A program made the translations under genes and the position numbers. A DNA stretch of 64,000 bases, from NCBI GenBank assembly GCA_004431415.1, contig QPMI01000494.1, forward strand, positions 372,001-436,000, written 5' to 3'. The stretch comes from Cyanophora paradoxa CCMP329. Taxonomy: Eukaryota > Plantae > Glaucophyta. Below are positions 27,687 to 59,944 of the stretch, piece by piece. Each line of letters begins with the position of its first letter. Within the stretch, counting starts at the first letter, position 1. Under the pieces are notes generated by a model. The model was not told the origin of the DNA. It did no database searches and saw nothing but the letters and a program-made list of their open reading frames with translations.

Positions 27687-28490
27687 GACTACGGCAAGTC
27701 CTACATGGGCCTGTCATGGGGAAAACGGCCTCAATTATTATGATGGCCGCCGGCCGGCCCGGCGCCGGGCAACGGCGGGTCCGACTCGTCCGACTCAGTA
27801 CTAGTCCGACCGTCCGACACGGTCCGAGGCTCCGAGCTCGAGTCGTCCGACCGGCCGCGCGCCGGCCCGGCGCCGCGCGCGCGCGGCCGCGCGCGGCCGA
27901 CCCCGGCGGCCAGCTTGCAATTGTTCATCCAGTCGGCAACTCGGCGCGCTTCAAGCTTCAAAGGCTTTGCGCGCGGCCGCGAGCGCTAACAGCGTATAAT
28001 AAGCACGAACAATCGCCCCAGGCCGACTTCGTCTCCATGGCCAGCTGCAGCCGCTGAGCGCACTATACTCAGCTTCCAAAGTTCGACAAGCTCGAACAGG
28101 ACAAGCCCGAGCAGCCTTCACCGAACGCGCAAACTTCACCGAATGCGAGCGAGACTAGGCAAGACGATGTATATGCCGATATCGATGGGCAGGTCGCGGC
28201 CGCGGCCGGCCGCGACCGCGGCCACGGTAGTCATGATCAGCTGCAGCAGCTGCGCTGGCCATGGGCGAGGCGAGGCGCCAAGTCAGCGCCGACTCCCGGG
28301 ACGAGGCGAGGCGCAATTGCAAAGCCAGCTCACGCAAAAACATGTGCGTGCATGATCACGATATGGCGCCCGGCTGATCATGCATACATATGTATATATT
28401 ATATATACGTTCGCATGTGCTCGTGTGCACGAGCTCGAGCTGCTTAAAGCTTCTTGTGTGCTTATCATATTCATCCGTACGCGTATGATT

Positions 28491-34400: not shown

Positions 34401-36150
34401 CTTGCCTGCCAGAATTCAGCGACAACCTTCTACATCAGCTTCTTGAACCTCAAAACCCCCGACTATTCGGATGCGTTCGCGTGCTTTTTTGACATCACGG
34501 AGGGTGACTTCGTCGACCTGATCTCTCCTTCACGCGATGGATCGCTGCTTGCTGCAGCCTCCCGAAAGGGAACCATATGGTGCGAGACATCGATATCGCG
34601 CTTAACATGGATTTAACGATGCCCGCTAAGCCCACATTTGAGCTAAGCTATTAAACTATATGTGCATATGCTGAACCAGCTGCGTGCAGGCTGATCGATC
34701 TCTTCGCGCAATCGTGCGCCCTCCGGTCTGTCTTCGGCACGCCGGGGCCCGCGGACTCGACGGCGGACCTGCGGTTCTCGCCCGACGGGGCGCTGCTCGC
34801 CTCGGCGCACGTCGAGGGCGACACGCACACGATCCGGTGCCCGGCGCAATTGCGCCGTTAATGTTGAATTTGAAATGCAGGCTAATCAGAAAGCCCAACG
34901 GCAGGCTGTGGAATCTATCAATCGCTGCAACGTCCGGACCGGCGGCAGCAGAGCAAAGTCGCGTTCTGTCCGGCCACACCGACAATATCACTTCACTTGC
35001 CTTCGCTCCCAGCAATTCCTTCCTCGTCTCGGGCTGTGTCGACCGGCAACTGCGCATATGGAGCACAGCAGACTGGAGCTCGTTCAGTGTACTAGCGCCT
35101 GCGCCGATCACTGCCGTGACGGTCTCTCCCGGCAGCGACGTCATCGTGACGGGTGAAACCTGCGAAAAGTTTGATGGCAACTTTGCGACGCAGCCTTCGT
35201 CGGGCGGGCCCTGCGAACCCGTCGTTCGTCTGTGGAGCGCGCAGAGTCGTCGCCTGCTTGGGAATTTGACTGGATTCAGTTACTCAACTCCAGTGTCGAT
35301 TTCCCGAATAGCATTTTTCAACAGCACGATATCGATTAATCAAACTCTACACCTGATGTCGTTTGATCCGGTCGGTGCGATGATGTGGTCAGTAAGCATA
35401 ATTCCAGCAGCACATTCGCCCAGCCCTTCGCCCAGCCCGTCGCCTAGCCCGAGCCCTTCGCCCAGCCCCTCGCCGACGAGGACGCCGAGCCCGTCCCCAA
35501 GGCCGAGCCCGTCGCCCAGCCCCTCGCCCAGCCCAAGCCCGTCGCCCAGCCCGAGCCCTTCGCCAAGCCCCTCGCCCAGCCCGAGCCCCTCGCCCAGCCC
35601 GAGCCCCTCGCCCAGCCCCACGCCTCGCCCCGCGGTTCCGCTGCCTCCGTTCCTCTACCGTGGATGCTTCGAATTCGGAAAAGACCTGCAGACCATCGAA
35701 CTCGTCGACCTTGCATACATACCCGGAGATGCTTCTAGGCCGTACCTGTACGCATTCGAGAAGTGCGCTCTGAAGGCGTCGTCCATCGGAGTGCGGTTCT
35801 TCGCGCTGTCGGACTCGGGGGCGGCGTGCTACGCCGCGTACTCGATGGACGCCGCCTCGCGGCTCGGGCACTCTGCAGAGTGCTCCCCGTGCTCCGATGC
35901 CGCGTTGTTCACCTGCGGTGGCCCAGGGTGCGGCTTAACATTCGTCGATGGAACAAAATTCGAGATAACCGGCTCGCAGCTCGATTTCCCTGTTCGATTT
36001 CCAGCCCGAGCTCGCCGGACAGACCCCGGTGCCTCAGCCTGGCGTCGGCCAGACGTGCGCGGTCAAGATGTGCGTTGCAAGGCGCTCCGCCTCGTTCAAA
36101 GGGTGATGGGAGGGAGTAAAAAGCGACAAGCAATTGCAACACCAAATTAA
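28491..36150 (+). CDS. Large secreted/surface multi-WD40 beta-propeller protein with Pro/(SP)n linkers and a C-terminal WSC-like domain (multi-exon; 3' end approximate)
   Basis: N-terminal hydrophobic segment [20 protein letters not shown]; many WD40 blades ([16 protein letters not shown]...[14 protein letters not shown]...[18 protein letters not shown]...LRIWS); PSPTPTP and (SP)n linkers; YRGCF...C...FFAL...CY...C.PC...TCGG motif typical of WSC. Confidence 0.75.
35415..35622 (+). repeat. Coding (Ser-Pro)n repeat
   Basis: TCGCCC/AGCCC(N) hexamer tandem translating to about 30 SP dipeptides in ORF 34684-36150. Confidence 0.9.
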
Positions 36151-40352: not shown

Positions 40353-42560
40353 ATGTGGGCGGACGACCTCCTCACGGCGGGCCTCGCCGTGTGGGCGTCC
40401 GCCCGCCTCGTAGAGCATCCCGGGCCGTCCCGTGTGGCCGAGGCAGCGGCGCTCGTGGCCCTTGCCTTTGCCGCGCTCTGGGCGTCCAGGCGGGCTTCGA
40501 GCGGCTGCGGAGCGTCTCAGAAGGCATGGTCGGCGACTGCGTACAGGTACGGAAGCCGCGCTGAGCTCCCTCCCGCCGCCCGGACGCGCTGAAGTCAGAG
40601 CAGGCCCCTTTCGGACGCCGGCGTGCCCGCCGGCGTGCTTGCGGCACCTCTGCTGTTCGCTTGCAAGCTCCTCAGCTCGAGCCCGTTCCACGGTGAGCGG
40701 CCCGTCGCCTTACTGCCTCGAAGCGCGCCGGTTCGAACTGACGGGGATCAGCGTGGTGGCTGCGGGCCTTCTGGAGCTCGTTGGCCTGCGGTGCGGCCGC
40801 CGCCACTTCGCTCATCGCCAGCGGCGCCCCTTTCCTGGACTCGCTCGTCGCCACGGCCGCTCGCGGCGGGGCGCTGGCCGCCCTCGCAGCGGCGCTCGCC
40901 TCCGGCCACGGGCGTGCGCGCCGCCCTCGCCTCGCGGCGCCCTCGTTCTCCGCCTGACTCGCGCCCTCCTAGTTTCGATCGCGGCGTCGGTCGGCGTGGC
41001 GCTGGTCGCGTTCGAGGGCGCCCAGCGAGTGGCCTTCGGGCCGGCCGCGCGCTGCTTCACCGCCGGCGAGGCGGCCTTCGTCTCCACTCTCTTCGCCCTC
41101 CTCTGCTCCGTCCTGTGGCCCCTCCTCCTCGGCCCCCTCTCCGCGCTTCTGGTGCGTACCCCCCGCTTCCCGGCCCGTCGCCTGTCTTCTTAGAGGCGCG
41201 CAAAGGGCCCCACCCCGCCCCAGGACTGGCCGGACGCCGCTATCTTCTCAGCGGCGCTCTGCCTTTCCGTCATTCTTCTCTGCGCCGGCCTGGCGCTGGC
41301 CTTGGGTACCCCCGCGGGCGCGGCTCCGGCTTCCCATAAGCAGGAGGCCGGCCGGCCCCGCCCCGCCGCCGGCCCCGCCCCGCGCCGCCGCCTCGCCTCC
41401 TCTCGAGACGCCGACGGCGAGGGTCCCGGCGCGCCGCGTGCGGTGCCATCGGGCGACGCGCCTCCCGAGCCGCTGCACTCGGCGGCGGCATCTGTACCCC
41501 AGCCGGCCTTCTGGCCCCTGACCGCCGGCGGCCTCCTCCTCCTCGTACTCCCCGCCACCGCCTTTGCTCTCCGCCAGAATCCCTTACCCTGGTGCGCCGC
41601 GGCTCCGGCTCGAATCCGGCGCGTTCCGCTTCCGTTTGACGCCCCTCCCGCAGGCTGCTCGAGGAGGTGCTGTCGTACCCCCGGCGGACGGCCCTCTGCG
41701 CCGTGTGGGCGGCCCTCGTCGCGCTTACCGTCGCCGCCCTCCGCCCGGGCGGCCCCCTCCGCTCGTGCGCGCGTACCCCCCTCCGCCTCTCCCCCCCCCC
41801 GACCTGAGCCCCCGGGGGCCAGGCGCGTGCCCCGGGTACTGGAGCGCAAGGCCTTCCACGCCCTGGCCCTCGCCCTCTTCCTCCCTGGGCTGGCCCTCGA
41901 CGTGAGCCCCCTCCTTTCTTTCTATCCCTGTACCCCCCCCATCTAATCACGTACCCCCAGGCCGCCTTCCTGTCGCTGGCGATGGCCGCAGCGCTCTCCG
42001 CCTTTTCTTTGGCGGAGGCGGCGCGGCTCGCCCTCGCGCCGCCCATTGGGCCGGCCCTCGCCGCCTTCTGCGAATCCTTCCGCGACGCCCGCGACGTGGT
42101 GCGTACCCCCCCGGACTTCTGGCTTGCGTACCCCCCTGAACTTCGTGCGCAGGGCCCCCTGATTCTGACGCACGCGTACCTCCTGCTCGGATGCGCGGTA
42201 CCCGTCTGGCTGGAGGCCCCCGGGGGGCCGGGCCGGCCGGCCCCGCTGGCGGCCTTCACGGGGGTACTGGCTCTCGGCGTCGCGGACAGCGCCGCCTCGT
42301 GGGCGGGGCGCCGCTGCGGGCGGGTACGCCTCTTCGGGGGCCCCAAGACCCTTGAGGGCGCCCTCGCCGGCGCCGCGTCCCTCTTCCTATCCCTCCTCCT
42401 CGCCGCCCGCTTCGCCGCGCCGGCGGCGCACCCCCCTTCCCTCCCCGGGCTGGCGCTGGCCTGCCTGGGGGCCGCTGTTCTGGAGGCGGCCACCTCGCAG
42501 ATCGACAACCTGATCGTGCCGCCCTACTTCTACGCCATGTTCCGCCTCGCGTGCGGGTAG
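40353..42560 (+). CDS. DOLK: Dolichol kinase (SEC59/DOLK family), multi-exon polytopic membrane protein
   Basis: Diagnostic motifs ERKAFHALA, FRDARDxGPLILTHAYLLLGCAVPVWL, GVLALGVADSAASWAGRRCG...KTLEG, LEAATSQIDNLIVP; many hydrophobic segments. Confidence 0.9.
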
Positions 42561-43493: not shown

Positions 43494-45284
43494 CTATTCC
43501 GGTGCCTGCAAAAGAGCGTTTTTTAACGACAGAAGCGCCTCACATCTGCAGCCTGATTCCGTGCACTGAAGCCCGCAGCTGTCGCCAGTTCCTTCGTGCC
43601 TACGAGCCCATGCGGCATCGTAGCCTGTCTGACCGGGCCGGGTCTCCATCCATTCGTAGGGAACCAGAAGGCGGATTTGGAGCATCCTGCCATTGAGCGT
43701 TAACGTTAACGTTTTGAAAAGCGGCGCGATCGTCATATGTAATTGATATTGGCGCGTGCGCACAACTTGATGCCACTCGTGACGGGCTCTTCGCGATGAA
43801 TGGCGTACGGGTCGCAGCGGAGGGTGCCGTTCTGCAGATTGTTGAATTTGATGACCGAGCCCGCTCCAGCCTTCAGGTTAAGGCCCAAGTTCTGGTGCGT
43901 GTACCGGTAAATCACATGACCTTTATCAAGAACTCGAATGTCCAGAGTAATATAAAGAAACACCTCGAAAGCGGTGTGGCCACCCTCGTACTCCGAGCCG
44001 GAGTTGAGCCAAACATGCAAAGTTGTGCGCCGCTGCCTTCCGCTGCCGTACCTACTTGCGCTTGGTCAGATTGACATCGATGTCGTTGTGCATATGGCTG
44101 ATTATTTATTCCGTGCACATTTTCAGCCAATTCGTACAATCCTCTCTGCAGCAGGCGTCGTGGTGATCCGTCTGGGAGGGATAATCTATTTTCGACCGCT
44201 CCTCGTTCCTCGGCCGGTACCTGCCGCAGTGTGCGCCATGCATACGTATGAGCGCGCTTGCGTACGTCCGAATTCGAACGGGAATTGCGGGATCCGGAAT
44301 ATTAATGCGCACGAGGAGAAGCGAAAATCATAGACGTCCGAGAAAGAGTAGTCTGGCCCAAGGCGAGCAATGAGTCGCAGCACAGCAGCCATTACCAACG
44401 AGCTGTTCCCGCGGGAAGCAACCTCTGAGAGCGCCCGTCAGCTCGTGAAATTCCCGCGGGAAATAACCTCTTGCTCGCGGACCCAACGGAGGGACGACGA
44501 AGCCTATGTCCTCGGCCATTAGCTTCTCCTTTGATTTCTTGGGGAGAAGCGAGATCAGCGCTTCCACCTCGTCTTCCGATAAGGCATCCAACCAAAGCTG
44601 GGGGCCGGAGTCGTCAGCGCAGCCCAAGAGCGCCCGTCGAAGATTTGATTTTCTAGATGCAGGAACCTCTGGCTGCACGGACTCGCCCCCTGCCTCGACC
44701 GTGCCCGCCTCCCGATCCGTTTCCACGATCGGCGTCGGGGGCGGGGCGCGGCTCCGCGTCGCTTGGTACTGGCGGGCCAGCTCCTGTGCCAGCCCGCGGT
44801 TGTAGCCGAGGGGCTTCGGCATCTTCGCGTCGTCCATCCAAGCCAGCGGGACCTTGATGAAGAGTGCCAGGACTCTGACATGAAATGGGATTCCGAAATA
44901 TTAATGGGATTCGCACGCATGAGCAGGCTTTCGATACTAATCGCAATCCCAGGCTTGCCCGTGCACGCGTTCACAACTCACCGCTTGACCCCTTGCAGAA
45001 CCGGGGCGGATCGGTGTACAGCATAATCGTGGCTGAGGTTGAGGAGAATTGGAATCGGCGAGGCGCTATTGTAAGCGATTCGTCGGTGAACGTTCCGGCG
45101 AACGGGTGCGGACCACAGGAGCGTGCCGGGGGTGAGAAGGTTGAGCTTCAGCCCCCATCCCGCCGGCCCCTTCACCCTCAGACCTAAATTCTGCATTCAT
45201 TATCGCGCGCTTCTTGAGCCTCGGAAAAGGGATTAGGAGGGGAGAGGGCGGCTTCCTCAGACGCTTACCGGGAATTCGGTGTGC
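43494..45284 (-). CDS. 3' part of a host gene with tandem P4H-like 2OG-Fe(II) oxygenase domains (end of domain 1 and all of domain 2)
   Basis: Domain-1 tail TEFP|NLGLRVKGPAG...AVHRSAPVLQGVKR|VLALFIKVPLAW; domain 2: DALSEDEVEALI, TDHHDACC (HxD), QRRTTLHVWLNSGSEYEGGHTAFE, NLGLNLKAGAGSVIKFNNL...DPYAIHREEPVTSGIK; stop at 43494. Confidence 0.8.
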
Positions 45285-45350
45285 AAAAAAATGTAAATTG
45301 GGCATACTGCCCCACGAAATTATATATGGTAATAAAATCGAATAAACTTT
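45285..45350 (+). repeat. Left terminal inverted repeat (perfect 66 bp; imperfect extension to ~45540)
   Basis: AAAAAAATGTAAATTGGGCATACTGCCCCACGAAATTATATATGGTAATAAAATCGAATAAACTTT is the exact reverse complement of 56245-56310. Confidence 0.95.
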
Positions 45351-45536
45351 AAACTTTTCGATATTCCACAAACGTTTCGACAAAACCAAATCAAAAACAA
45401 ACCATTCACAGTAACCACACAAAACAAAACGTAAAATCTCAGTAAGCCTCAGTAACAACAATCGATGTTATATCATAATCTCGGTTATTCCTCATTGATT
45501 GTTTCATATAAAAATAATCTGATAATCTGAATAAAA

Positions 45537-45899
45537 ATGGAAACCAAGCCACAACAACGCTTTTACATTTTCTCTCGATATGATGATCGCGAATCCGTGA
45601 AATCAAAAGGAGCAAAATGGGATTTTGAAAAGAAGCTATGGTTTGTTGAAGATGAAAACAGTGAGATCTTCAAAGAATTCCGAAAACTAACAGAAGACGA
45701 AATCAAATACATTAATGTTAAAATGTTTTGTCAAGTTGCTTTCAAAGACATCCAATTAGCGAAATCTTATGGTCTCAGATGGGACCCAATTCATAAGGGT
45801 TGGTATGTTAAAGGAATCCATTATAAAGAAATTTTCAAAGTGTTCAGACCTATCACGAAAATTGTTGAATCGAAAGATGGTTCATACCTCACAGCCTAA
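45537..45899 (+). CDS. Small viral protein with two DUF5710-like repeats
   Basis: Two copies of the YxD/E...K..GAxWD...K.W motif: YDDRESVKSKGAKWDFEKKLWF and FKDIQLAKSYGLRWDPIHKGWY. Confidence 0.7.
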   Translation: METKPQQRFYIFSRYDDRESVKSKGAKWDFEKKLWFVEDENSEIFKEFRKLTEDEIKYINVKMFCQVAFKDIQLAKSYGLRWDPIHKGWYVKGIHYKEIFKVFRPITKIVESKDGSYLTA

Positions 45900-46954
45900 C
45901 GTCTAGTCAACCCGCTTCGTAAATTATACCTCTTCCTAACTACTTTGCTCCTATTGGGCTTGATACCCTCTTTTGCTACTAATCTATTTACCTTCGTTGT
46001 TTTTTTCACTCGCTCCACACGCTTCTGTGTGGGAATCTTAACAATTGCTGCCTTATCTACTTTTTGCAACTCGTTCAGTTTAAAGTTTCGTTTTACTTCC
46101 TTTGGACTCTCTCCCTCATTCTCTTCCAATAAACTAAATCGATTACCTACCTTGCCTGCTACTTTATACACTTGTTTGCTGTATCTTGCTCCTTCTTTAT
46201 CGAAAGTCTTCTTTTCAGTTACAGCTCGAACATAATCTCCCTCCTTTACTGTTGGGCTACCTTCTTTAATACGTTTGTTATGCAATGCATCACGCAAATA
46301 TATGAACGATTCTTTCTCGTTATTCCCATACACTGCATTGGGTGAATCATTCTTTAGGGAAGTGTGTGGACTGTTGTTGTAAGTTGCCAGAACCTGTTTG
46401 TAATAATCAGTCCATTTTGGGTTCCCACTCGAAACTATTGCTTTTCTCAAATATTGTTTAAAAGTTCTGGTGAACCTATCGATAATACCAAGTTTATCAC
46501 CTACTGTGATGTGGTCATTCTTAGCTACATCAGTGTAGAGTGTAACATTGTTTTCCTCACACCATTTCCTATAAATCTCAGCAGAGAACTCATTGTCTCC
46601 TGAGATAGCACTAACCTTGCCTGCCTCAACTTTGAACCTGTTGAAAATATCGATTTTCGAATCCTTTGGCTTGAAAGGGTATACAAATGCTTTCCGACTC
46701 AATATATCGACAAATCCCAGCATCCTATCCACTCCATGTGTTGCTGTCTTGTAGCTTTTGAAATAAATCACATCAACCTGAAAGGAATTGGGTGGAGCAA
46801 TGATCCGCAAGAAAGACTTTTGCTTTTTGGGCTTCTTAAAGATCTGCTCAAGCTCTTGATTTTTAAAACGCTTTCTTAGTTCTTCCTCATCAAATGTGAT
46901 ACCTTCTTTAATCAATTTCTGTCGATACTTGGTATAACTCAGAACCTGGTCCAT
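45896..46954 (-). CDS. Retroviral-like (rve) integrase, Polinton type
   Basis: SFQVDVIYF (D1), FVDILSRKAFVYP, ISGDNEF (D2), GIIDRFTRTFK (third acidic residue), YNNSPHTSLKNDSP, C-terminal KEGDYVR...FDKEG...YSKQVYKV. Likely start MDQVL at 46954. Confidence 0.9.
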   Translation of the reverse strand: MDQVLSYTKYRQKLIKEGITFDEEELRKRFKNQELEQIFKKPKKQKSFLRIIAPPNSFQVDVIYFKSYKTATHGVDRMLGFVDILSRKAFVYPFKPKDSKIDIFNRFKVEAGKVSAISGDNEFSAEIYRKWCEENNVTLYTDVAKNDHITVGDKLGIIDRFTRTFKQYLRKAIVSSGNPKWTDYYKQVLATYNNSPHTSLKNDSPNAVYGNNEKESFIYLRDALHNKRIKEGSPTVKEGDYVRAVTEKKTFDKEGARYSKQVYKVAGKVGNRFSLLEENEGESPKEVKRNFKLNELQKVDKAAIVKIPTQKRVERVKKTTKVNRLVAKEGIKPNRSKVVRKRYNLRSGLTRR

Positions 46955-49900
46955 CCTTATTATAGTGTTGTTTTGTTTTATAGTGTCCAATCGCAAGAGT
47001 AGTATAGAGGTCCTCACAAAGATACCTCTTAGTATCGAGCGCATTGAATGCCCTTTTCTTCATTTCCTGCGTTGTTACCTCGTGGTTCTTTGATCGGAAA
47101 CCTCGAACTGTTACTTTCTCCCGCTCCTTCATTGGATACATGACAGTGTTGTAGAATTGTAGGAACTCTAACCTATTCTGCACTACTGACCGCTGAACTC
47201 CCTTCAACTTCTTAACCTTACTATCAATAACATCAGCTTCCGTAGCATTCGACTTCACTCTTAACAAATCCTTCAACTTGTCAGCAATCACCTGTTTTAC
47301 ATTTTCTTCTGATCCCAGAGCCTTAACATTCAACTCCTTCTCGTAGGAGTATGCTTTTGGTTTGTAACCAGCAAACCTTGTAACGAGATAATCACCACAA
47401 TCATCCTTGAACAAACGGGAACCTTTTTATTTTTAGGGTTGTAACAGATGTGGGATTTGCTGTAATCAGACTGATCAAACCAATGAGAATCCTCAATCAT
47501 GTCTTTGTAGATATCGTCAGTCTCAATCAGATAATACAGGAATCTGTATCAGTCATGAGCAGCTTGGCTGATCCAGGTCCATACTTCACCATGATGTAAT
47601 CGTAATGGAAACGATACATGATTAGTTTGGACAGATCCAAGATAGCCTGACCAACATAAATGGGTTTATCCAACATAATAGAACCCTTATAGAACTCTAA
47701 AGCAGTAAGATTCTCATTGATAATCTTCACTGTCTTCAACAATGGATTGCCGTTGTGTTTGAGCTGCACCCTGGGATCGTTGCAAAGCTTTATGTTACTT
47801 CGCTTGCGAACGTTCTCCATGGTCTTTCCGAAAACTGAGTTATTCATGAGTTTGTAGAAATCTTTCTCGAAATCATTACGAGCTTGCGTCCGCAGTCCGG
47901 TATTGAAATCGATGTATGGTCTCAGCCACTCAGATTGATCATACATAATCCCACGATGAACCTTTGTTACCTTCAATCCTTTTGAGATGTAGTACTGCAA
48001 GTTTTTGATGTGTAGGATGTAATTGGTCTTGTTCATCAGATTGGGAACCAACTTACGAGTCTGGGTAGTTTTTCATCACCAATCATTTCAAGCTGTGTTG
48101 GTGAAATCATTGACTTGGTGATTATTAGAGATTCGGGAGCAAGAGGTAAATCACTGTGAAGATCATGTAGGTGTTCTGGATATTCCAAGTCAACCTCCAA
48201 AGTTGCACCTCTATCACCTTCCACATCAAAGCCCATATAATCGAAATTCTCGATGTCATCAATCCACTCAAATCCACCTCTGGGTAGCTTGAAACTCATC
48301 GCTTTCCCATACAGATTGTTGGCATCCCAAGTGGTGATATACTTTGTTGACTTTGATGGATCATAAGACTTCATGTAGGGGTTATTAGCCTCTGCATAAC
48401 GATTGGGAACCATGCAAACACCTCCACGAATTCCAAGTTCAAAGAATCTATACATTTCAGGGTCACTCAATTGCTCCAACTCCACACCTGTATATTTCAA
48501 CATCGCGAACCATGACAGGTGAGGAGCTGAAATGAAATGGATAGGATCGATCTTATAATTACTGTAGCAAACATTGCGGAATGTATTGAAAACGTCAGCA
48601 AGCAGAGCAACATCAGTAGAAAGATAGATATCGTGATAATCTCCGAGAGTTTTGCAGTTGAAAGCGTCCCATACCCTCTGGCAATGCTTGTAGTCGGAGT
48701 CACTTAATTCAGTATCATTGAGTTTCGAGTAGAAAGCTTCTTTGGGAGGTAATTGGGTCTCACTGAGTTTCTCGAAGCTATCCAGGTAGTCGTAAGGGAA
48801 GTGTCCCTTTTGCATCAGTAGCTCTCGCTGTTCCTGTGAGTAATTTACAGAATCACACCACTCATTGGTGAATTTGAAATTATTCTTACTGAGATTCTTT
48901 ACCAGACCATCAAGGCTCGAAGCCATGAAATTCAAAGAGTCCATGAACTTGTATGGTCCCATATCGAATGCTATGAACTTCTCAAAATTCTGGGCAATGC
49001 AACGAATTTCCTTACCAGGTTCATTGAAATTCAAAGCCTTCAGAATATAGTGTCCATCATAACCTTTTAGATTGTGGAACACAACTGGGATCTTTGGATT
49101 GATCTTTCGTTTCAGATTGCAAGTATTGCAAGCTGCTCCAAGGTAATCTCCTGTAATGTGATCGTGGTCTCTAACCTTTTTAACTTGACATGTGTTACCA
49201 TTGTCATCAGTTATAGTAGCTCCAAACTCATCTCCGCAGATGTAGCAAGCAACAGAATCTCTGTAATCCTCTTTGTGCCATTGTTCCATAACCATTGGTG
49301 CAACATGTCTAAGCTTCTCAAGTAAATCGGATTCAATCGTTTTCAGTGTCTCCATAAAGTGCTGTGTAACCTCATCATCATTTTCTGGGTTCTCCTTCCG
49401 ATACAATACCTGTTTTATAATCTCTTCGTTGTGGATAACCATGATTTTGTATCCACTGGGAATGTGTTTCTGGTAGACTGCAGTATTTTCACCTCGTGTC
49501 TCATCCACCTTTTGCAATATACATTCGAAGTCAGCAACAACAAACATTGGATGCCATACAGTCTTGTCAACATGTCTCTTTGGGTCCCACTTGGTCTTAG
49601 ATCCGCTTGGTGGCATTGTGTCAACTGTTGCATTTGGTCGATCGTAACACTTGTTGTGTTTAATGTGGGTCTCCAATACCGTTTCACTGGTGAACCCTCT
49701 CAAACAAGCTTTACAGAAATGGCGAGTTCCATGGTGCGAATTGGATATTAACCTTGACATGCTAGAAATGTAACCATAGTGGGTTTTTCGTTGACAGTCC
49801 ACAGAAGAATGTCAATTGTAAGATGTTGTTTAGATGGATCCTTACAGATATGGACTGGAACGATATGTGATCGATCGACCATATACACATTGATTGGTCG

Positions 49901-50869
49901 ACCAATCATTTTTGATGCTCGTTCGTACTGACGAGGATCATTCTTGAATGGGAACTCAAACTTATTCCAATTGAACTCATTCTCATACTTCTTGTATCGC
50001 TTTACATCGTATCGGTGTTTATGAGATAGCTCATGTTGATGTAGTCCAATAGTTACCGCCCATGCGAAACATTTATTATCTTTGTTCTGTGGATTAATCA
50101 CAGCTTTACGCTTTTTTATTCCTGGTGGGAGGTCAATATAGGAGCTACCTGCGAGTGGCTGATAAGTAAGAATCTGCAAGCGAACTGTTAAGATGTTTTC
50201 TAGCTTCCAACTATCAGGTGAAGTGAGAACCTCCTGCAATGCATCAATTGATTCATCAACAGTATCAACAATCTCTTGATCATTGACAAGAAGGTAGAAT
50301 GGGGTGGTCCATTGCATGGTTCTTATTTCTCCAGTTGCCACTTTCACATATCTCGCCATGCTGTAGAGGTTATACTTAATACCTCGTCTGTTACGAAGAG
50401 CATCTCGAAAACGATTGTAGAAGGGATCCCAACGAACAACCCTATCGATAAACTCATGGGCAGAAGCGATGTTATCTCTGGTCTGGTTCCTCAAAGTGAC
50501 TTCACTCACGAGATTATTCATAGCCTGCATTACCTCCGCCTCCTCACGTTGTTTCTTCTCATCCTCTCTCTGTTTCTTTGCCTCTTTTGCTATTCTTTCT
50601 CTAACCTTCTGCTTCTCAACATTCTTTGCAGTCCTCTCCGCTCTGGCTTCCTTCTTCTCCTGCTTGCGATACAAACGAGGCTCTACGATACCTCTCAGTG
50701 TATCTCTGATATCAATCAACTTTGGAATTCTAATTGCTTTGAAAGTAAATTCTCTCAAGAAATAGATATCCTGCTCTCGGGTCAATTTGTCTTCTACTTT
50801 TGCTTGCATGTAGTAACCAAGAATCTCATCCTGCAAATTCTTCGAAATTCGATTACTTGGTCGAGGCAT
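46908..50869 (-). CDS. Protein-primed family B DNA polymerase (pPolB), split by four 1-nt frameshifts; ~1321 aa when repaired
   Basis: INPQNKDNKCFAWAV, ExoI ADFEC, EndoVII-like CYIC...VRDHDH...CNTCN, ExoII FHNLKGYDGH, KGHFPYDY, ExoIII YLSTDV, DANNLYGKAM (motif A), KLMNNSVFGK (B), TDTDS (C), KLKGV, C-terminal DTKRY...TLAIGHY. Confidence 0.93.
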
Positions 50870-51101
50870 TTTCACTTTTATATATACTCTATATTTTATT
50901 TCCTTAAGTCATTTTATACTCGCGTCAAATTTTACCGGCAAAACCAAAAGTCTCCAACAAAATTAATTCAGTCGAGGGCATTCATAAAAATAACAAAGGG
51001 TTGGCTCGATCATCGAACTCTAAAAATAACAGAAAGATTTATAGTTTTGCTTCCAGCGCGGTTTCCGCGGGTTCTCAGAGCAATCGCGCTGAGAAAAACG
51101 A

Positions 51102-51365
51102 TTAACAAGCATTAACATACTTTGATGGACGTCCACGGTTGGTATGAGGAACGTCAAATAGATACTTTACATAGAGAATGGTGTTATTTACATATTGAGC
51201 CTTGCATGAAGTCATTATGTGAGCTTGTCTGAATTCTTCATCATTGTTATAGAGTTCGCTCCATTTTGCATTGCGTTTCTCATTAATCCTAGCAAGCGCT
51301 AACATACCCTTTTCTGTTTTACGGTAGCGGTAAGTTGCTTTCTTTTGGGCTTCTGTGATCGTCAT
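51102..51365 (-). CDS. Small basic viral protein (87 aa), unknown function
   Basis: Clean ATG-stop ORF MTITEAQKKATYRYRK... preceded by an ACTTAAAGA...TATATTAA motif like that before pPolB. Confidence 0.6.
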   Translation of the reverse strand: MTITEAQKKATYRYRKTEKGMLALARINEKRNAKWSELYNNDEEFRQAHIMTSCKAQYVNNTILYVKYLFDVPHTNRGRPSKYVNAC

Positions 51366-51717
51366 TCTTGTCCTTTCTACTCTCTTAATATAAGTTAAGA
51401 AATCTTTAAGTAGTTTTTATGTCGTGTATATATTCTTTGTGAGAACCCAATCAATTTTTGGTCCCAATCGCATTGCATCCAGTTCGAAAGAAGATGCTGG
51501 AAAAATGATAAAGCCACCGATACCCAAAAAGGTTCACTTGTCGGATGCAAGTTTCTACCACTGAACCCGGTAGAACGGGTGATTAAAGTGATATCTGTGG
51601 ATAATTCACTTCGCTCTACAACGCCTCCATAAAAATGAAGAAGTTTTGAGCCTACGGGATAAGATTGGTTACGTAGCGCTAACAATGTTCAAGATTTTTT
51701 TAATTCGGAAATGATCC

Positions 51718-52467
51718 TTAACGGCGATAACCAGGTTTAATACCGAGCTTGGCAAACCCTGAGACCATTGGGGCAGCATTTGGAATCGAGTTGACTGGAT
51801 CAGCCTGTGAAGTGGCAACCCGGAGGATTGATTTATTGAGGACCGGCAAATCCGTTTTGTTGGACTCTTGATAATCGATGGTCTTTGCAATCAATTCGGC
51901 TGGTGATTCTTTCACGACATGAACAGGTTCAGGGATGACTTCATGGGTTACTTCTGGTTTCTTCTCCACCTTTTCCTTTGTGATTGGCTGTTCCTTGATC
52001 CTGTTTTCGTTTTTGGTCTCTGCTGCAATGCCATCAACAAGACTCCTAGCATACTGGTATGTCACAGATTTCAGTCCACCAGTGGTTGAACGAATAAAGT
52101 AGCGGTTGCGATGGTCTTTCTCGGAATAGGTTGAGTAGAGTCGCTCACCACCATCAAGCAGTTTCAGCAGTGTTGATGATGAGGCAACCTTGTCCTTTGT
52201 CGATGATTTGAACTGTCCTTTCTTGATTCCTCGTTTGGCTCCAGGCATGCGGTTCAGTGGGACTTGGTCAACCAGGGCATTATCATCATTTGAGTTTGAA
52301 GTAAGCGCAATTGTGTGAGCATTCATGGTCTGGTGAACATTTTTATCGAGATCACCAGTTCCGTATGCTGCGGTTCCTTTCGATTTCTTAAACTGTTTCC
52401 GTTCTGGTTCTGCTTGCTCAACTGGTTTGGCTAAGAAATTCTTTGGCTGGGTCTTTCGAGTTGCCAT
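51718..52467 (-). CDS. Lys-rich viral protein (249 aa), unknown function
   Basis: Uninterrupted ORF directly downstream of mCP in a gene-dense virus; basic composition. Confidence 0.7.
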   Translation of the reverse strand: MATRKTQPKNFLAKPVEQAEPERKQFKKSKGTAAYGTGDLDKNVHQTMNAHTIALTSNSNDDNALVDQVPLNRMPGAKRGIKKGQFKSSTKDKVASSSTLLKLLDGGERLYSTYSEKDHRNRYFIRSTTGGLKSVTYQYARSLVDGIAAETKNENRIKEQPITKEKVEKKPEVTHEVIPEPVHVVKESPAELIAKTIDYQESNKTDLPVLNKSILRVATSQADPVNSIPNAAPMVSGFAKLGIKPGYRR

Positions 52468-52503
52468 TTGTAATATCGAGACAAATTTATTCTACAGTAT
52501 TTC

Positions 52504-53402
52504 CTATGACCGTGAGAACGGCAAGTAGAGTCCCTCCAACTCTTTTATGACATTCTTCAATGCTTTCTTTGTCAGATCTTTATCATCTTCAGTAATCAGT
52601 TCGAGAGTCATCGACCAGTCAGTGGTAATATCCGTTTCAGCACCATTCCAGTATGTGAGACGAACTTTTAGCGTTTCAACTTCCACCAAACCGTTTTGCT
52701 CATGCAGGATCATGGAATTATTCGATGAATCATATTTTAAGAGACTGCCTACCGTTTGATCAATCTCGATTTTTGCGAGGGCTTTATCATCGCTTGTGTT
52801 CTTGCTTACATAGTTGCCTTTGAGTGGGTCAACGTGGAGAAGGATGTAAGAGTTGAACAGAAGATCGAGCGGTATAACACTGTCAATGTAGTAATTATAA
52901 GTATAAGCTCCAACTGTTACAGGTGAATCGAGCAGGGCAGAAGCGTATCCATTTTCAGAACTGTCAGGTCTGCGATCTGGGAAACCAAGGAAGTTCGCTA
53001 AGATCCGACTTCCAAAGGTGAGGGTAAATGTTGCATCGCACATGAACCGTAGAAACATGGTAACAGGATCATATGTAACGTAGAAATGGCGAGTATAGGT
53101 AGTTCCCGCTGCTCCGTACACTTGTGAAGCTAGTTTGGCATTTAGAAGATTCACCAAACTATCCGAAGTATATGTCCCTTTCGAAATAGTGTTACTCTTG
53201 GTCTTAATTACATCCCCAACATCATAGGTTCCTGTAATCAAACTTCCATTCTCGCTAAGATTGTAAATGTTATTGAACATCTCAAAGTTAGTCACTCTGC
53301 AGGCTCTCACATTTTGGATTGCATGGGGAATTTTGTAAGTAAAGTTCGTTGGGTTCCATCATCTCGGTCCCTGGAATCAATATTAAGGTAATGACGCGTC
53401 AT
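52504..53402 (-). CDS. Minor capsid (penton, single jelly-roll) protein with one 1-nt frameshift at ~53352
   Basis: MTRHYLNIDSRDR...; adding one C gives PTNFTYKIPHAIQNVRACRV...NNIYN, FLGF, YILL, and C-terminal LKVRLTYWNG...DWSMTLE, a pattern typical of PLV/NCLDV pentons; 299 aa when repaired. Confidence 0.75.
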
Positions 53403-53454
53403 TCTGTTTAATAAAGCATTTTAAAAATTTCTTTTGGTATTTTAAACATAAGAG

Positions 53455-54681
53455 ATGGCACTCACTGGAACTACCCTTAAGGAACTCCTCGTAACTCCCG
53501 GTTCCGATCAAATTTATCTATCCCCTGGTCTCCAAATCGGAACCAACCCCAAGTACAAACCATTCCTCGAGCAAGTTCGTCCCCGAGGCAATACTTTTGG
53601 CTTTAAGAATACCGCTTACTTTGATCTACCTCGCAAGCAACTCCTTGCTGGTGTTTCGCTCTATTTCAAGATTGCCACTGGTGGTGGTGTAGCCTGCACC
53701 CTCCCCAATGGTGGTTCTTCCTTTATTAATGAGGTCCGCTTTGTTCATGGTGGTTTCAAGTATATCATCCCTGGTGACTGGATAACTGTTAACGCTCTGA
53801 TTGATAATGATCATGCTACCATGAGCAGCATGTATGCTTCTCTTGGTTACTTCAAAGAACTTGATCGTGAAAGCACAGATGAGGCTATGGAATACATTGT
53901 GAAAATTCCCGCTGCTTTCTGGGATGATGCTTACTTCCCACTATGCACACTGGCGGATATGCCAACAATTGAGGTTGATTTCCGTGATGCTGGGATAGTC
54001 AAAGTTCCTGCTGGTGGATCTGTTACATTTGCGGATTGCTCCCTGATCTGTCAATTTGTAAACATCGCTTCGGCTGAGGCTGAGACACTTTTGAAAATGG
54101 CAAATGAACAAGGTGGCATTCGTATTCCGATCACAGAGGTCATCCACAAGAAGACACGAGCGCTCAAAACAGCTGATGCTGGTGAATCGGTTGAGGTGAC
54201 ACTCGCTAATGTTTCTGGTCTGGTTCATTCGATTCTCATGACTGTTCGAGAGGTGAACAAACTCAACACCTACACTCATTCTGATTTCTGTGGTCATGTT
54301 TCGGATGTTAAAATCGATCAGTTCCAGATCTTCCACAACAATCGCTCCCTTGATATCTCTAACAAACCCATTTCCGGTTTCCTCTCCGCTGTCAATCACA
54401 TTCCCTCTCATTACAAGGGTGTTACTGTTGGCAATACCACCTACGGATTCGAGTCTGGAAATGTTTATGGAATTGTTCTTTCCAAGTCCGGAAAAGATTC
54501 GCTTCGGAACTCGGTTATGGGTTACCAGGATTTCTTCAACAGCAGCTCGAGTTACATGGATCTCACTGTTTCGGGATGCACTGATGCTGCTCCTGTTCAG
54601 GTTGATATCTTTTGCTTACGACATAATGTTATGGTCATCAATATCTACACCATCTCTACCCTAAAAGTCTCGAACTTTTAA
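53455..54681 (+). CDS. Major capsid protein (double jelly-roll), 408 aa
   Basis: Size, beta-rich pattern, FG...YFDLPRKQLLAGVSLYF, FINEVRF, VKIPAAFW...FPLCTL...IEVDFR, C-terminal VDIFCLRHNVMVI; lies between mCP and ATPase. Confidence 0.85.
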   Translation: MALTGTTLKELLVTPGSDQIYLSPGLQIGTNPKYKPFLEQVRPRGNTFGFKNTAYFDLPRKQLLAGVSLYFKIATGGGVACTLPNGGSSFINEVRFVHGGFKYIIPGDWITVNALIDNDHATMSSMYASLGYFKELDRESTDEAMEYIVKIPAAFWDDAYFPLCTLADMPTIEVDFRDAGIVKVPAGGSVTFADCSLICQFVNIASAEAETLLKMANEQGGIRIPITEVIHKKTRALKTADAGESVEVTLANVSGLVHSILMTVREVNKLNTYTHSDFCGHVSDVKIDQFQIFHNNRSLDISNKPISGFLSAVNHIPSHYKGVTVGNTTYGFESGNVYGIVLSKSGKDSLRNSVMGYQDFFNSSSSYMDLTVSGCTDAAPVQVDIFCLRHNVMVINIYTISTLKVSNF

Positions 54682-54760
54682 AGTTCTTTTCTTTCGTTAG
54701 AGTAGGAAGCGCAAAATTAGTAGGGTTGGGGTTTATTTTGTTTTTTATCTTATTACTGTA

Positions 54761-55528
54761 ATGGATAACACAGGAATGGATATTGATTTGAATGACATCT
54801 CAGAGTTTGAGCCTGCAAGAACAGTTAAATTAAGCACGCGTTTTTTATTATGTGGACGCAGCAATTCTGGTAAGACAACTTACTGCAAATATCTACTTTA
54901 TGAACTGAGGGATAAGATCGATCAGATTGTAGTCTTTAGTTCTACTGCGTTTACTGGTCAATTCAGAGATATAACGCATCCTGATAATATCTATGAGGAA
55001 TGGGACGATAATGTAGTAGTGAAACTCATTAGCATGCAAAAGAAACGAATCGAAAATAATGCAAAACGCAACAATCTTGTTATTATACTTGATGATATGA
55101 TCGGTTCTTCTTTGGATATGCATAATTCGGCTGTGTTATCTAAATTGATCACTACAGCCCGTCATTATTCGATTACAGTAATTATTAATACTCAACGTTT
55201 ATGTTCAATTTCTACTACGATTCGTCGAAATGTTGAGTTCGTAGTATTTTTCAATATTCTCGGGAATGAGAAGGAGTTTAACTGCGCTTATGATGAGTAT
55301 AATGGTGGTCTTGATAAAAAGACCTACAAGGAATTGCATAGACTGTGGGGTTATAACTACCAAACAGTCATAACTGGATTGCAAGGGTATGATATAAAAG
55401 TATACACAGACCGGGCAATATTAACAGATGATGATATGAAGGGCTTTAAGAAGTTTGTTAAGAGACGAGCGATAAAAAAGAGAGAATCAATAAGAATTAG
55501 TAATGAACCTACGACTATTACGGTTTAG
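54761..55528 (+). CDS. A32/FtsK-HerA-like DNA packaging ATPase
   Basis: Walker A GRSNSGKT, Walker B LVIILDD, and ARHYSITVIINTQ...STTIRRN motif. Confidence 0.93.
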   Translation: MDNTGMDIDLNDISEFEPARTVKLSTRFLLCGRSNSGKTTYCKYLLYELRDKIDQIVVFSSTAFTGQFRDITHPDNIYEEWDDNVVVKLISMQKKRIENNAKRNNLVIILDDMIGSSLDMHNSAVLSKLITTARHYSITVIINTQRLCSISTTIRRNVEFVVFFNILGNEKEFNCAYDEYNGGLDKKTYKELHRLWGYNYQTVITGLQGYDIKVYTDRAILTDDDMKGFKKFVKRRAIKKRESIRISNEPTTITV

Positions 55529-55665
55529 ATAACAAGGAATGTTTGAAACTCATTTCGTGTCCATAGTTTCATTTCATAATCCCATTTTGCTTTTTTCTCT
55601 TTTGCGATTTTTCGATCATTGTAATCACAATCAAAGTAAAACTTCTTAATTGTATTTGTCTCCAT
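55525..55665 (-). CDS. 46-aa single DUF5710-like ORF, paralog of 45537-45899
   Basis: METNTIKKFYFDCDYNDRKIAKEKKAKWDYEMKLWTRNEFQTFLVI*; its upstream ~50 bp is an inverted copy of the 45537 ORF's upstream region. Too short for the supplied ORF track. Confidence 0.65.
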   Translation of the reverse strand: METNTIKKFYFDCDYNDRKIAKEKKAKWDYEMKLWTRNEFQTFLVI

Positions 55666-55717
55666 TTTATTCAGATTATCATATTATTTTTATATGAAAC
55701 AATCAATGAGGAATAAC

Positions 55718-56310
55718 ATCGATAAATAAGATTTAAGATATAACTTCGATTAATTAATTTAAGATATAACTTCGATAAATAAGATTTAAGATATAACTTC
55801 GATTAAATAAAATAGATTGTGACTGAGGCTTACTGAGATTTACTGAGATTGGGGATTGGGTTACTGGGAATCATGCGGATATTGCTTGAAGGGGCAAATT
55901 ATATTGGGGTAATTTTTGGGTGTAATGCATATAACTTCGATTGATTAGATTTTAGATATAACTTCGATTAAATAAAATAGATTGTGACTGAGGCTTACTG
56001 AGATTTAACGTTTTGTTTTGTGTAGTTACTGTGAATGGTTTGTTTTTGTCGAAACGTTTGTGGAATATCGAAAAGTTTAAAGTTTATTCGATTTTATTAC
56101 CATATATAATCTCGTGGGGCAGTATGCCAATGATATAACATCGAATTTTGTTTATGATGCTTACTGAGATTTACTGAGATTGGTGATTGGGTTACTGAGA
56201 ATGGTCTGTTTTGTTGAAATGTTTGTTGAAAACATGAAAAAATGAAAGTTTATTCGATTTTATTACCATATATAATTTCGTGGGGCAGTATGCCCAATTT
56301 ACATTTTTTT
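55718..56310 (-). repeat. Right terminal region: 26-27-bp tandem repeats, internal TIR copy and outer perfect TIR
   Basis: (A/G)ATATAACTTCGAT x5; ~55981-56128 is an inverted copy of ~45302-45460; 56245-56310 is the perfect TIR. Confidence 0.85.
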
Positions 56311-57267
56311 GTGTGCCCTCCCTCGTAATCCGCCCCTGAATTCAACCAAACGAGAACGCCGGATCTTCTCTGCCGGCCATCTGCGTATCTGCGAAAGTGC
56401 AATCAAGGATTTATAATTAACATACTGCGGCGCTAGCTGATCATTCGTGAAAAAGCCGACGAAATCATGTAATAGAACGCTGATCGATGCGCACTTCATG
56501 TACCACTCGCCGCAGTCCTGCAATTTCGCAAACAGATTTCGTGAGCTGTGAGTAAACTGTACATGTGTCTGGGAATGAGAGACGAACTGGGAGGCAGCAA
56601 GCGTCGTTGTGGAAACCGGTCGCAGGGATCGCTGGATGCTCTTCACTTCCAGGGGGCGGCGGCTCGTACCTGGGTCGATATAATTTGTAAGATATCTTGT
56701 GCGGAGATACGCGAGATTTCGCAATCTGCGCGTTAGCGCACTCGAAGAACTGTACCCCGCCGAGGTAAAGGTCGTCCATCGAATACGTAGGTCCCAGGCG
56801 AGCGAGGATTTTATCAAGAATGGCGTGGAGCCCGCTGTCCAGATCAGACGCTGCAGATATCCGATAGATCCCCGGAACTCGCTCAGTTAAACAACATAGC
56901 ACAGAAGGCCATAGGCTCGCCGGGCTGCACACCGTGGGGGTTGAAGGCGGTGCGGTGCTTGTCTCTGAAGAACCTCGTGGTATTCAGGTATTCGACTTCT
57001 TGCGGCGAGAGCAGGTCCCGAAGCAGCTGCGCGCATTCCAATCATTGAATGCACGCGCCACTTGCAATCGGATCGCGAAATTCGACACCCTCGCTTAATT
57101 GCGCCTCACGATGGCAGGTTCGACATACCTCCGGGTAATCAAAGTTGCCCCCATGCGGCTCTGCGGGTGTGTGGACGCCTGCATACTGGCCCTCTGGATC
57201 TGCGATCGCGAGTGTGTGAATTTCACGCGTGTTAAATTAAAGTTGAATTCGAAATGTGTTTGGTGTG

Positions 57268-57305
<38 letters not shown>

Positions 57306-57589
57306 TGGGAGGAAGCTTATAGATTATAAAATGGGTTTGCGTAAATACCGAAAGCTCCAGATTCTGGATCCTTCGCCATTGACAACTGAGTGTATGCGTA
57401 CGCATCGGCCGCGGTGAGGGAAGCGGCGCCGGCTTTGATTTCCGAAGCACATGCGTTTGCTCCAGCGGGCAGCTCCAGCACGTGATTAAGAAGCCCGATG
57501 CAGATGATTGCGAAGATGATTGATATTGACGTTTGTATATTCGAGCATTTGCAATTGACATCTTCAGCGCTCGAGTTCGTGCCCGTCAT
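56311..57589 (-). CDS. 5' part of the interrupted P4H-like 2OG-Fe(II) oxygenase gene (type II membrane anchor plus most of domain 1)
   Basis: ISIIFAIICIGLL TM segment; LLRDLLSPQEVEYL; ILARLGPTYSMDDLY; TGFHNDACC (HxD); exon YADGRQRRSGVLVWLNSGADYEGGH running into the TSD. Start codon approximate. Confidence 0.8.
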
Positions 57590-58058
57590 GTATGTATGTA
57601 AAACTTTCGTTCCACTGTCGCGTGTGTGAATCTTGCTATAGCTATAGCTATGACCAGGAATGCGCATCTATACTACATATGATATATGCTGGCGCCCGTC
57701 GTGAGAACGTTAGCCCTTGAGGGGCCGATCGCGAACTGCGGCGGGGCGCGCGCGGCGCTGTGACCTGGGGGCTGGGGCCCGTGGCGCACAGCTGCAGATC
57801 TATATCTATTCGATGACAATACTATGATAGAACTACGCACTGCGGCAATGACGCCGCCGGGACTCTACGGCCCGGGAGGCCGGAAGACCGTCGACGTCGG
57901 ACTGGGCGGGCCGGCGCTGGCGCCGGTACGGCCCGGGACTCGGGCCGGGAGGCGCGGCCGGCGCCGGCGACTCGGCGGCGAGACTGGGGTACCGGTAGCC
58001 TAGTAGTATCGCCAGTACGCAGCACTGCGGCACGAAGCCTACTACCGTAGTACTACTA

Positions 58059-58291
58059 CTGTAGGAATGCTTAAATTGTTAAATTGCCGCGTAGTTAAAT
58101 TGCCGAATTCGACCAAAACCGGAATTGCCGTGGCGATAAATTGCCGATACTCTGGATTTTTTCTATGGCGTCATACAAAAGCGGCCGTTTAGCCCTACCC
58201 CCTGAGAATTGCCGTGGCTTAAAATTGCCGAATTCGGCCTCTCGGCAATATACGGCAATTTGAAACATTGGCTAAAAAAGCATTCCTACAG
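58059..58291. mobile_element. TA-targeting MITE, 233 bp
   Basis: TA|CTGTAGGAATGCTT ... AAGCATTCCTACAG|TA perfect 14-bp TIR; internal AATTGCCG repeats. Confidence 0.75.
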
Positions 58292-59944
58292 TAGTAGTAG
58301 TAGTGGAAAGCCAGTAATGGACGGGTACGCAAAGTACCAAGACACTACGAGCTCGGAGCAAGCTTAAGCGGCACCGAGGCGGCACTTGCATCATCATGGC
58401 ATCATACTTTTTTCCCCGCTGTTAATTTTCACTACGTAGTTGGCGACATGGCAGACATTGGCAGTACCGACCCAGCCGCCACCTAGCAATTTAGGAGGAA
58501 CGTCGTGGGGGGTACTTAGCGTCGGAGCTGCCGCAGGCCGCGGCGCGAAGGGTGTGCAGCGTCGAGAAGCACTGCAATTCTGACAATGCCTGCGTTGCAA
58601 ATGACCTCTAAACATTTCGAAAGCCCGTGAAAACAGTTCAGGCACGTAGTGCCTTAAAGCTCAGCGAGATTTAGGTCGTTTTCGGTCGTTTTTTAGTGTA
58701 AACGACTGCCCGGTACCCAGCCCTAGTGGCCAGTGGGACCCCGGCCCGCCACATGCACTGGCAGTGGACTGACTCAGTGGGCATTCTCGCCACTACATAC
58801 AACATGCCAGTGGCATACAAACGACGGAAAATCGCCGGGGTGGGGGTAGGCTCACGTCGTCAGATCGATCTGACCCGAGCTCATTGTGCGGATTTTCGCT
58901 TTTTTGAGCCGATCTTTTCCACATTCGGTGCGCGCGATTATCGCATCGCCGGGAATCGAAAGCCTTAGCTAAAGAAGGGTCGGACTTGCACCTTCAAATT
59001 CCTCGACGCATGTTCCAATCGTTGCCGAACTCGCTGTAAAAATCGAAGGCGCCAAGCGCCTGAAAGCTCGGTGCTTTTTTGCTTAGTTTAAGTCGATTTT
59101 CGCTCCAGAGTCCAAGGTACCCCCCCTCACACTGGCGCCACTGAGTGGGGTGCCAGTGGGCCCTGAGTGGGGCGACTGTGGGGGCACTGGGGGCCCTGCT
59201 GGGGGGCCGGGGGCCCGGGGCCCGGGGGTCACTGACTCAGTGGGCTCGGACTCTCCGGGACCGCCAGGGTACCGGTCAGCCTGCGCGCGGCGCCCCCGGC
59301 CCGGCGCGCGGCGGTACTACGGTAATCCATAAATTTTGAAAATTAAAAGACCCGGTATTATAGTATATGTGTAGACTTACAGGCCGGACTCCGAGCCAGA
59401 GTCCGACTCGGCGAGCCTCGGAGGCTCTTCAAGGCTTATGTATATACTATGATAATTAGAAGAAGAAAAGTTCAATTTTTGCAACACTGAAAGTTCTGAA
59501 CCAACGAACTTCGGAAACGAGACCATGACTCATGCCAAACAATTAAATTACAAAAAAACGACTGCACAGCCTGCCACTGGGCCAGCTGGCAGGTTCTGGA
59601 ACTTTGTACTTACTTGTGGAAGGACTGCACATGTACAGAAGACGTAGGAATTCTCGCCAACGTTAACAGAGCGGCGTCAGAGCCTTTATTTCGTCGATAC
59701 ACTTAAATTTCCGAATATTTGATACACTTGAAATGAGCTCGAGCCTTTTTATATTGTACGGAGAGAGGGATACCAGCGGCTGATTTGTCTAAGGCGAAGC
59801 CGCGGGTACGACGAAAATATGATGATTGCGAACCATATTTCGTCCGACGGTCACGATTTTCGCGTTTTGTCGAAATTAACTCTCGACGAAAGTTCCTTTT
59901 TTCTGCACTGCCGCAGTGTGGGGCCTGCGGGCCTGTGCGGCAGC

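Follow-up and report, generated by a model that had tools for sequence, protein, structure and literature searches.

An endogenous virus in exon 7 of a host gene

The DNA analysed here, hereafter the window, is a stretch of 64,000 nucleotides from Cyanophora paradoxa CCMP329 (assembly GCA_004431415.1, contig QPMI01000494.1, positions 372,001–436,000). At ∼45.3–56.3 kb of the window, the GC-rich host DNA is interrupted by an AT-rich block which splits exon 7 of a 14-exon gene for a predicted 2-oxoglutarate (2OG)-Fe(II) oxygenase. The block is a Polinton-like virus of 11,026 bp (45285–56310), with a GC content of 0.39 compared to 0.59 for the host coding sequence. A preliminary description of the locus had placed a virus in the middle of this exon; in agreement, a capsid protein, an A32-like packaging ATPase and a protein-primed family B DNA polymerase (pPolB) are all encoded within the element.

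A search of all nearby boundaries returned a single solution with a 6-bp direct repeat. The repeat, GTGTGC, occurs as a target-site duplication at 45279–45284 and 56311–56316, and the element between the two copies begins and ends with perfect 66-bp terminal inverted repeats (45285–45350, plus strand; 56245–56310, minus strand). Terminal inverted repeats combined with a target-site duplication of 5–6 bp are among the features used to define the Polinton-like virus/Maverick-Polinton supergroup. The same empty site would result if the duplication were 4 bp and the repeat 67 bp long. The extra terminal C that this alternative needs is present in one other insertion flank of the terminus (runs X15/X17) and missing from another (runs X21/X22); the latter disfavours it, and the 6-bp/66-bp assignment is preferred. 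Beyond 66 bp the two ends are still related but rearranged. The left repeat continues as a looser inverted match to ∼45641, and the right end is expanded into a subterminal region (55561–56244, minus strand), a diverged inverted copy of the left end carrying ∼165-bp tandem duplications.

The interrupted gene

The host gene was modelled from three-frame translations and splice-site lists and runs on the minus strand from 57589 to 43733. After removal of the element and one copy of the duplication, the model contains 14 exons encoding 562 amino acids with no internal stop, and all 13 introns (58–149 nt) are bounded by GT-AG. Accumulated stops and frameshifts were looked for, and the earlier impression that the host exons are free of decay was borne out. 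Exons 1–6 and their introns (56389–57589; exons 57589–57349, 57199–57129, 57026–56933, 56850–56742, 56669–56588 and 56517–56495) encode a hydrophobic N-terminal stretch and the HxD motif of domain 1. Exon 7 is divided into a 5′ part of 78 nt that includes one copy of the duplication (56311–56388) and a 3′ part of 10 nt beyond the duplication (45269–45278). Exons 8–14 (43733–45190; 45190–45114, 45032–44982, 44874–44483, 44424–44313, 44220–44119, 44051–43964 and 43891–43733) encode the distal His and Lys of domain 1, a linker and the whole of domain 2; all parts lie on the minus strand.

The two domains align at 79 of 201 columns with a score of 318, compared with 15 for the best of 500 shuffles, and their introns are placed in parallel, which substantiates the likeness between them noted previously. 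Each modelled domain contains an iron triad followed by a distal basic residue (H192/D194/H268/K278 and H466/D468/H542/K552). With the natural open frame across the last two exons, all 30 matches in Atlas belonged to PF13640 (best score 0.94); Pfam gave no match on the intron-containing or single-exon pieces, which were all unspliced. The sequence thus supports a protein of the 2OG-Fe(II) oxygenase type. The narrower prolyl 4-hydroxylase label of the preliminary description is a putative one, based on motifs.

Removal of the element restores the open frame, as had been described; the exon peptide was reproduced, including the overlap of the duplication with the G-H-T codons. When 0–9 flanking bases were dropped at the join (n = 10), the motif was restored by the 6-base join only; offsets 0, 3, 6 and 9 stay in frame and the other six run into early stops. 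Because any duplication-type insertion into an intact gene restores the frame on removal by definition, the informative evidence is the intactness of the remaining host gene rather than the restored frame. Read-through of the interrupted allele would give 252 amino acids, composed of 232 host residues and 20 encoded by the element. This truncated product would retain H192/D194 and lack H268, K278 and the whole of domain 2, for which reason the allele would be null. With a 6-bp duplication, excision that leaves both copies would also keep the frame and add two residues. Since such an excision would be in frame, reversion would be easily selected if the gene mattered.

Among the loose contig ends listed, two contigs from other runs, one of 1,299 nt (X21) and one of 206 nt (X23), have matches of 40 and 36 nt, respectively, to the domain-2 exon. 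Both continue in frame as GHTE-x-x-N-x-GL (by eye) with codons unlike those of either host domain, and both join at the point where the host model takes out an intron. This points to spliced paralogs and not to an empty allele. An additional contig in run X14, at a depth of 70, has short matches to the host gene. Loss of the oxygenase gene may be harmless through paralog redundancy, and because paralogs exist the knockout is probably of little consequence. No long stretch of the interrupted gene is covered in the putative RNA runs (both halves in X15 and X17; the 3′ half in X21–X23), an absence that says nothing on its expression. Runs X15 and X17, whose RNA status is guessed, do cover the integrase end and the capsid and ATPase parts of related copies of the element.

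Both junctions occur in short-read contigs

The stretch is contained in 20 sequencing runs, none of them registered as RNA. Of these, 14 are DNA-like at 0.98–0.99, each marked as a possible source of the window; three of these 14 (X1, X7 and X14) were compared with the window. Their contigs total 93–123 Mb, a size that, with the structure of the host gene, fits a unicellular eukaryote rich in GC and dense in introns. At the left junction, one host contig continues with 0 differences for 28 nt into the element in all three runs. At the right junction, another host contig extends 29 nt into the element in both X1 and X7 (2/2). The joint expected of an empty site (45284 to 56317) is not among the 15 of 23 joints listed. 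An empty allele of similar depth should break the contigs, and the unbroken junctions therefore argue against a common empty allele. Essentially every cell of the sequenced strain probably carries the element.

Genes of the element

The gene closest to the left end after the DUF5710 frame described below encodes a likely rve-type integrase (45896–46954, minus strand; 352 amino acids from the second ATG). Its match to Pfam rve has an E value of 0.033, below the cut-off. Candidate catalytic residues are D61, D120 and D159, a D-D-D arrangement; retroviral integrases have Glu at the third position. The sequence makes an rve-type identity likely, and the 6-bp duplication fits such an integrase. NCBIfam, PHROGs, PDB sequence and plasmid searches yielded nothing further for this protein.

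The pPolB gene (46908–50875, minus strand) is spread over five frames in the window. Its pieces match Pfam DNA_pol_B_2 with E values of 5e-14 and 2e-5, the largest lies above the cut-off of PF03175 and the motifs occur in order; the element thus has the pPolB that marks Maverick-Polintons sensu stricto. It is followed by two small open frames of ∼100 amino acids each (51102–51688, minus strand), in a region that differs among copies, and by a 249-residue charged protein (51718–52467, minus strand) for which the family search gave no match. A putative minor capsid (penton) protein (52504–53402, minus strand) has a one-base break near 53350; this identity is presumed from its position and an N-terminal motif, and Pfam, NCBIfam, PHROGs, PDB sequence and plasmid searches found no match to it. 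On the plus strand lie the 408-residue major capsid protein (53455–54681) and a 255-residue A32-like DNA packaging ATPase (54761–55528; Pfam Pox_A32, E 2e-14), the latter also a defining gene of the supergroup. A cysteine maturation protease was sought in two ways: none of 13 element frames has a Pfam match to one, and the motif Q-x(2,6)-CG is absent from every stop-free stretch of at least 80 residues in the element.

An inward-reading DUF5710 frame with common upstream sequence stands at each end of the element. The left frame (45537–45899, plus strand) encodes 120 residues with two DUF5710 stretches (Pfam E 4e-14), and the short right frame (55525–55665, minus strand; 46 residues, Pfam E 5e-4) reaches into the right subterminal repeat. 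These paired ends are what is left of an inverted repeat that was once longer.

The major capsid protein

A search of 1.84 billion representative sequences with the capsid protein returned four matches. One of them, a jacalin-repeat protein (P0004), was removed as spurious before alignment; the three credible relatives are 24–28% identical to the query. A model predicted from the single sequence was discarded (predicted local distance difference test score, pLDDT, 30), and the model from the four-sequence alignment reached a pLDDT of 58 and a predicted template modelling score of 0.61. Foldseek comparison of the latter with PDB placed the capsids of EhV-201, an iridovirus and PBCV-1 at the top (E 3e-16), with the Sputnik and mavirus capsids beneath the giant-virus capsids at ranks 48 and 50; BFVD gave the same ranking (E 5e-19). 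Atlas scores the protein 0.98 as double jelly-roll, yet with a low recognition value. On its modelled fold, the 408-residue protein is a double jelly-roll capsid protein, as found throughout the Polinton-like virus/Maverick-Polinton supergroup, and its sequence is unusual in having just three distant relatives among the 1.84 billion representatives.

One of the three relatives, a 456-residue EukProt protein (P0002), is labelled Cyanophora paradoxa. Its sequence suggests that endogenous viruses of the lineage of this capsid occur in glaucophytes. A word-based protein search, which is a weak one, found no capsid relative, and scans of viral contigs found none of the ATPase, pPolB, capsid alignment or integrase. 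A metagenome scan gave four loci with 33–34 matching residues; one of them (L004) is a bacterial-type transposase gene, and the loci were rejected as relatives.

A young, multi-copy family

In single long contigs, the depth of the element far exceeds that of its flanks: 503–511 versus 48–55 in X1, 985–1084 versus 82–112 in X7, and 524–557 versus 56 in X14. This suggests ∼10 near-identical copies, as a rough sign, depth not being a strict copy number. Between the window and the dominant contigs there are 0 substitutions in 3,141 bp, which bounds neutral divergence from the dominant copy at less than ∼0.1% for that part. Taken together with the ∼10 near-identical copies, this makes the family a young one. 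Independently, the host gene has acquired no second lesion, corresponding to a neutral divergence since the knockout of less than ∼1.3–2.5% (95% bound, by assumed indel rate). The knockout is recent in these evolutionary terms, as had been proposed; the accompanying suggestion of a subclonal or polymorphic insertion was not supported (see below).

Two other insertion flanks adjoin the same terminus, one in X15/X17 and one in X21/X22. The X21 and X22 contigs (2,168 and 1,758 nt; runs dated 2019 and 2020) end in the terminus 45285–45359 with 0 mismatches, next to a common long foreign flank, and might mark a further integration site in transcribed host DNA.

The pPolB gene is broken by single bases near 49783, 48062, 47538, 47415 and 46970, each a full- or near-full-depth difference from the contigs; the break at 53350 in the putative penton gene is the sixth. 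These are the one-base differences of such depth in coding genes among the rows listed. In each of them the window lacks one base next to an identical base, and four lie inside the 0-substitution stretch, which suggests that the breaks are mostly long-read assembly errors. Frameshifts of this origin are described for Polinton-like elements in PMC10120064. The variable region at 51.0–51.7 kb contains both kinds of length difference among the indels listed. The N-terminal half of pPolB (48706–50636) is ∼2% away from the dominant contig, and among the 42 substitutions listed 30 are synonymous. To judge from this pattern, pPolB is probably under selection and the window copy a mosaic of functional subfamilies, not a decaying element. 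Across 51000–55900, the depth of the capsid/ATPase half is several times that of the pPolB half, with many pieces 90–95% identical; the uneven depth suggests more diverged subfamilies or derivatives that lack pPolB.

Origin of the insertion

Together, these data make it highly probable that a recent, integrase-made insertion into exon 7 truncates the host protein in essentially all cells of the strain. Starting from the structure, the two junctions, the capsid fold, the other flanks of the terminus and the paralogous oxygenase sequences, we infer the following course. An rve-type integrase of the family would have joined the ends of the linear element to host DNA cut with a 6-bp stagger, the duplication arising on repair. 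Read-through would then yield the 252-residue product of a null allele, whose loss the paralogs would let the host tolerate. The family would have been active recently and comprise ∼10 near-identical copies, this element among them; its pPolB would copy out new linear genomes, perhaps packaged in the element's own capsid. The one-base breaks of the window copy would be mostly long-read assembly errors.

Several points weigh against this interpretation. The three DNA runs compared are probably from one strain and may be the window's own source, in which case they test the assembly and not a population. The contigs lose minority variants, as seen from window alleles at 48.8–50.6 kb that are missing from them; a rare empty allele could thus be hidden, and so could real frameshifts of the window copy. 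Word-based searches with the linker exon and the domain-2 frame, whose blanks are weak ones, found no close host ortholog, and the intact ancestral allele is known as a model only. The integrase match falls under the Pfam cut-off, and the copy estimate leans on depth.

The most serious competitor, still an unlikely one, holds that the window copy is truly broken in pPolB and penton: either sister copies inserted it in trans or its decay has begun, so that the insertion is maybe older. The split of pPolB over five frames, the rearranged ends past 66 bp and the 42 sites that differ from the dominant contig in 48706–50636, among the rows listed, agree with such a history. What tells against it is the uniform character of the six breaks, all one base shorter beside a like base and four of them in a stretch with 0 substitutions, in elements for which such artefacts are known (PMC10120064); the mainly synonymous substitutions and the lack of a second host lesion point the same way. 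We consider it improbable that the insertion is polymorphic or subclonal, with some cells, a second homologue or sister lines retaining an empty allele. Unbroken passage through the left junction in 3/3 runs and the right in 2/2, and the absence of a 45284-to-56317 joint among the 15 of 23 listed, oppose this idea; in its favour, the family is young and multi-copy, contigs lose rare variants, three of 14 DNA runs were compared, and the Cafeteria EMALE insertions are described as putatively heterozygous in PMC8547959.

The knockout might also be incomplete if a donor GT 9 nt inside the element were used with the host acceptor at 45183 to splice the element out, giving a 559-residue in-frame protein with a small local change. 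The frame is kept in silico and the inverted repeat places the donor at both ends. Such splicing would nevertheless need an 11-kb intron, compared with 58–149 nt for the introns of this gene, and would have to bypass 266 YAG acceptors in the element; the X21/X22 contigs pass the donor position unspliced at another locus, on one strand or the other, and the change strikes a conserved core strand. Rescue by splicing is accordingly very improbable. A misassembly that put a repeat into the host gene by chimerism is contradicted by the data. Multiple copies of the element and traces in the window of long-read errors left unpolished would favour it, but the duplication is an exact 6 bp and both junctions recur letter for letter in the short-read contigs, in keeping with the preliminary description.

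Neighbouring features

A multi-exon host gene at 40400–42560 (plus strand) lies tail to tail with the oxygenase gene; by its motifs it looks dolichol kinase-like, and one of its exons has no Pfam match. Further away, a long multi-exon gene at 28380–36150 (plus strand) contains, by eye, many WD40-like repeats, SP-repeat linkers and a WSC-like end. On the other side, ∼460 bp upstream of the oxygenase start, a 255-bp element (58048–58302) has 25-nt inverted ends (96%) and internal repeats. Because its depth in the DNA runs is very high, it is likely a high-copy miniature inverted-repeat transposable element.

Significance and comparison with known systems

An endogenous DNA virus has here probably knocked out a host gene in a way that can be followed to the base; for such cases a complete gene model together with short-read proof of both junctions is seldom reported. 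The element family looks young and multi-copy and is possibly expressed. At least 14 public DNA runs of the strain exist, and insertion sites could be compared across them as a measure of present mobility.

The host protein shares the HxD…H triad, the distal Lys, the LN…EGG.T strand motif and the hydrophobic N-terminal stretch with prolyl 4-hydroxylase-like 2OG-Fe(II) oxygenases (PF13640). Unlike them, it has two tandem domains, in which HxD is followed by a DACC motif; the searches returned no close homolog.

The element operates as a Polinton would and is classified as a Polinton-like virus. Virophages (Maveriviricetes) require a virophage-like cysteine protease according to PMC9952930, and no such protease was found in the element. 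In the EMALEs of Cafeteria burkhardae, 13 of 22 analysed sites are in exons and two in introns (PMC8547959). Like EMALEs, which bear an integrase, the present element is a DNA virus with a likely integrase, terminal inverted repeats and target-site duplications, inserted in host coding sequence. EMALEs are virophage-type with duplications of mostly 3–5 bp; the present element differs in its 6-bp duplication, in the absence of a detected protease motif and in a capsid nearer to those of giant viruses than to those of mavirus or Sputnik.

With Maverick-Polintons/Polintoviricetes, as characterized in 10.64898/2026.06.19.733378 and 10.64898/2026.07.28.741278, the element shares pPolB, a likely rve integrase, an A32 ATPase, a double jelly-roll capsid, inverted repeats and a 6-bp duplication. 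It differs from them in length (11 kb versus ∼20 kb) and in having just 66 bp of perfect repeat; no cysteine protease of the kind expected for group 1 (Gosseviruses) was detected, and the gene context is not animal-like. The 2026 framework (10.64898/2026.06.19.733378) includes rve-bearing groups with giant-virus-like capsids as well as unplaced outliers, and its hidden Markov model set may already cover the capsid described here.

A literature search for such an element in glaucophytes found no description, which does not show its absence from print. With its small genome, in which no protease was detected, and its divergent capsid, the element may represent a lineage not yet described. Going further, we propose only tentatively that this is an undescribed minimal (11-kb, protease-less) integrating lineage with a giant-virus-like capsid, still mobile and transcribed, acting as a natural insertional mutagen in a widely sequenced protist strain. 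If true, the strain would offer a culture-ready test of spread by transposition versus virions.

Both 6-bp duplications of the rve type and the disruption of genes by such viruses are reported in PMC12220804. Insertion into exons is already published (PMC8547959), and the present event is a new instance. Protist Polinton-like elements span 14–40 kb in PMC10120064, a descriptive range under which the 11,026-bp element falls, and its capsid, with three credible relatives, also sets it apart. In other respects it resembles the endogenous Polinton-like viruses of protists described in PMC10120064 and PMC12220804 and the NCLDV-like groups of 10.64898/2026.06.19.733378: low GC content, multiple copies in a protist-type genome, rve-type 6-bp duplications, apparent assembly frameshifts and a variable replication module are common to both. 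Its small genome and divergent capsid widen the known range of Polinton-like viruses.

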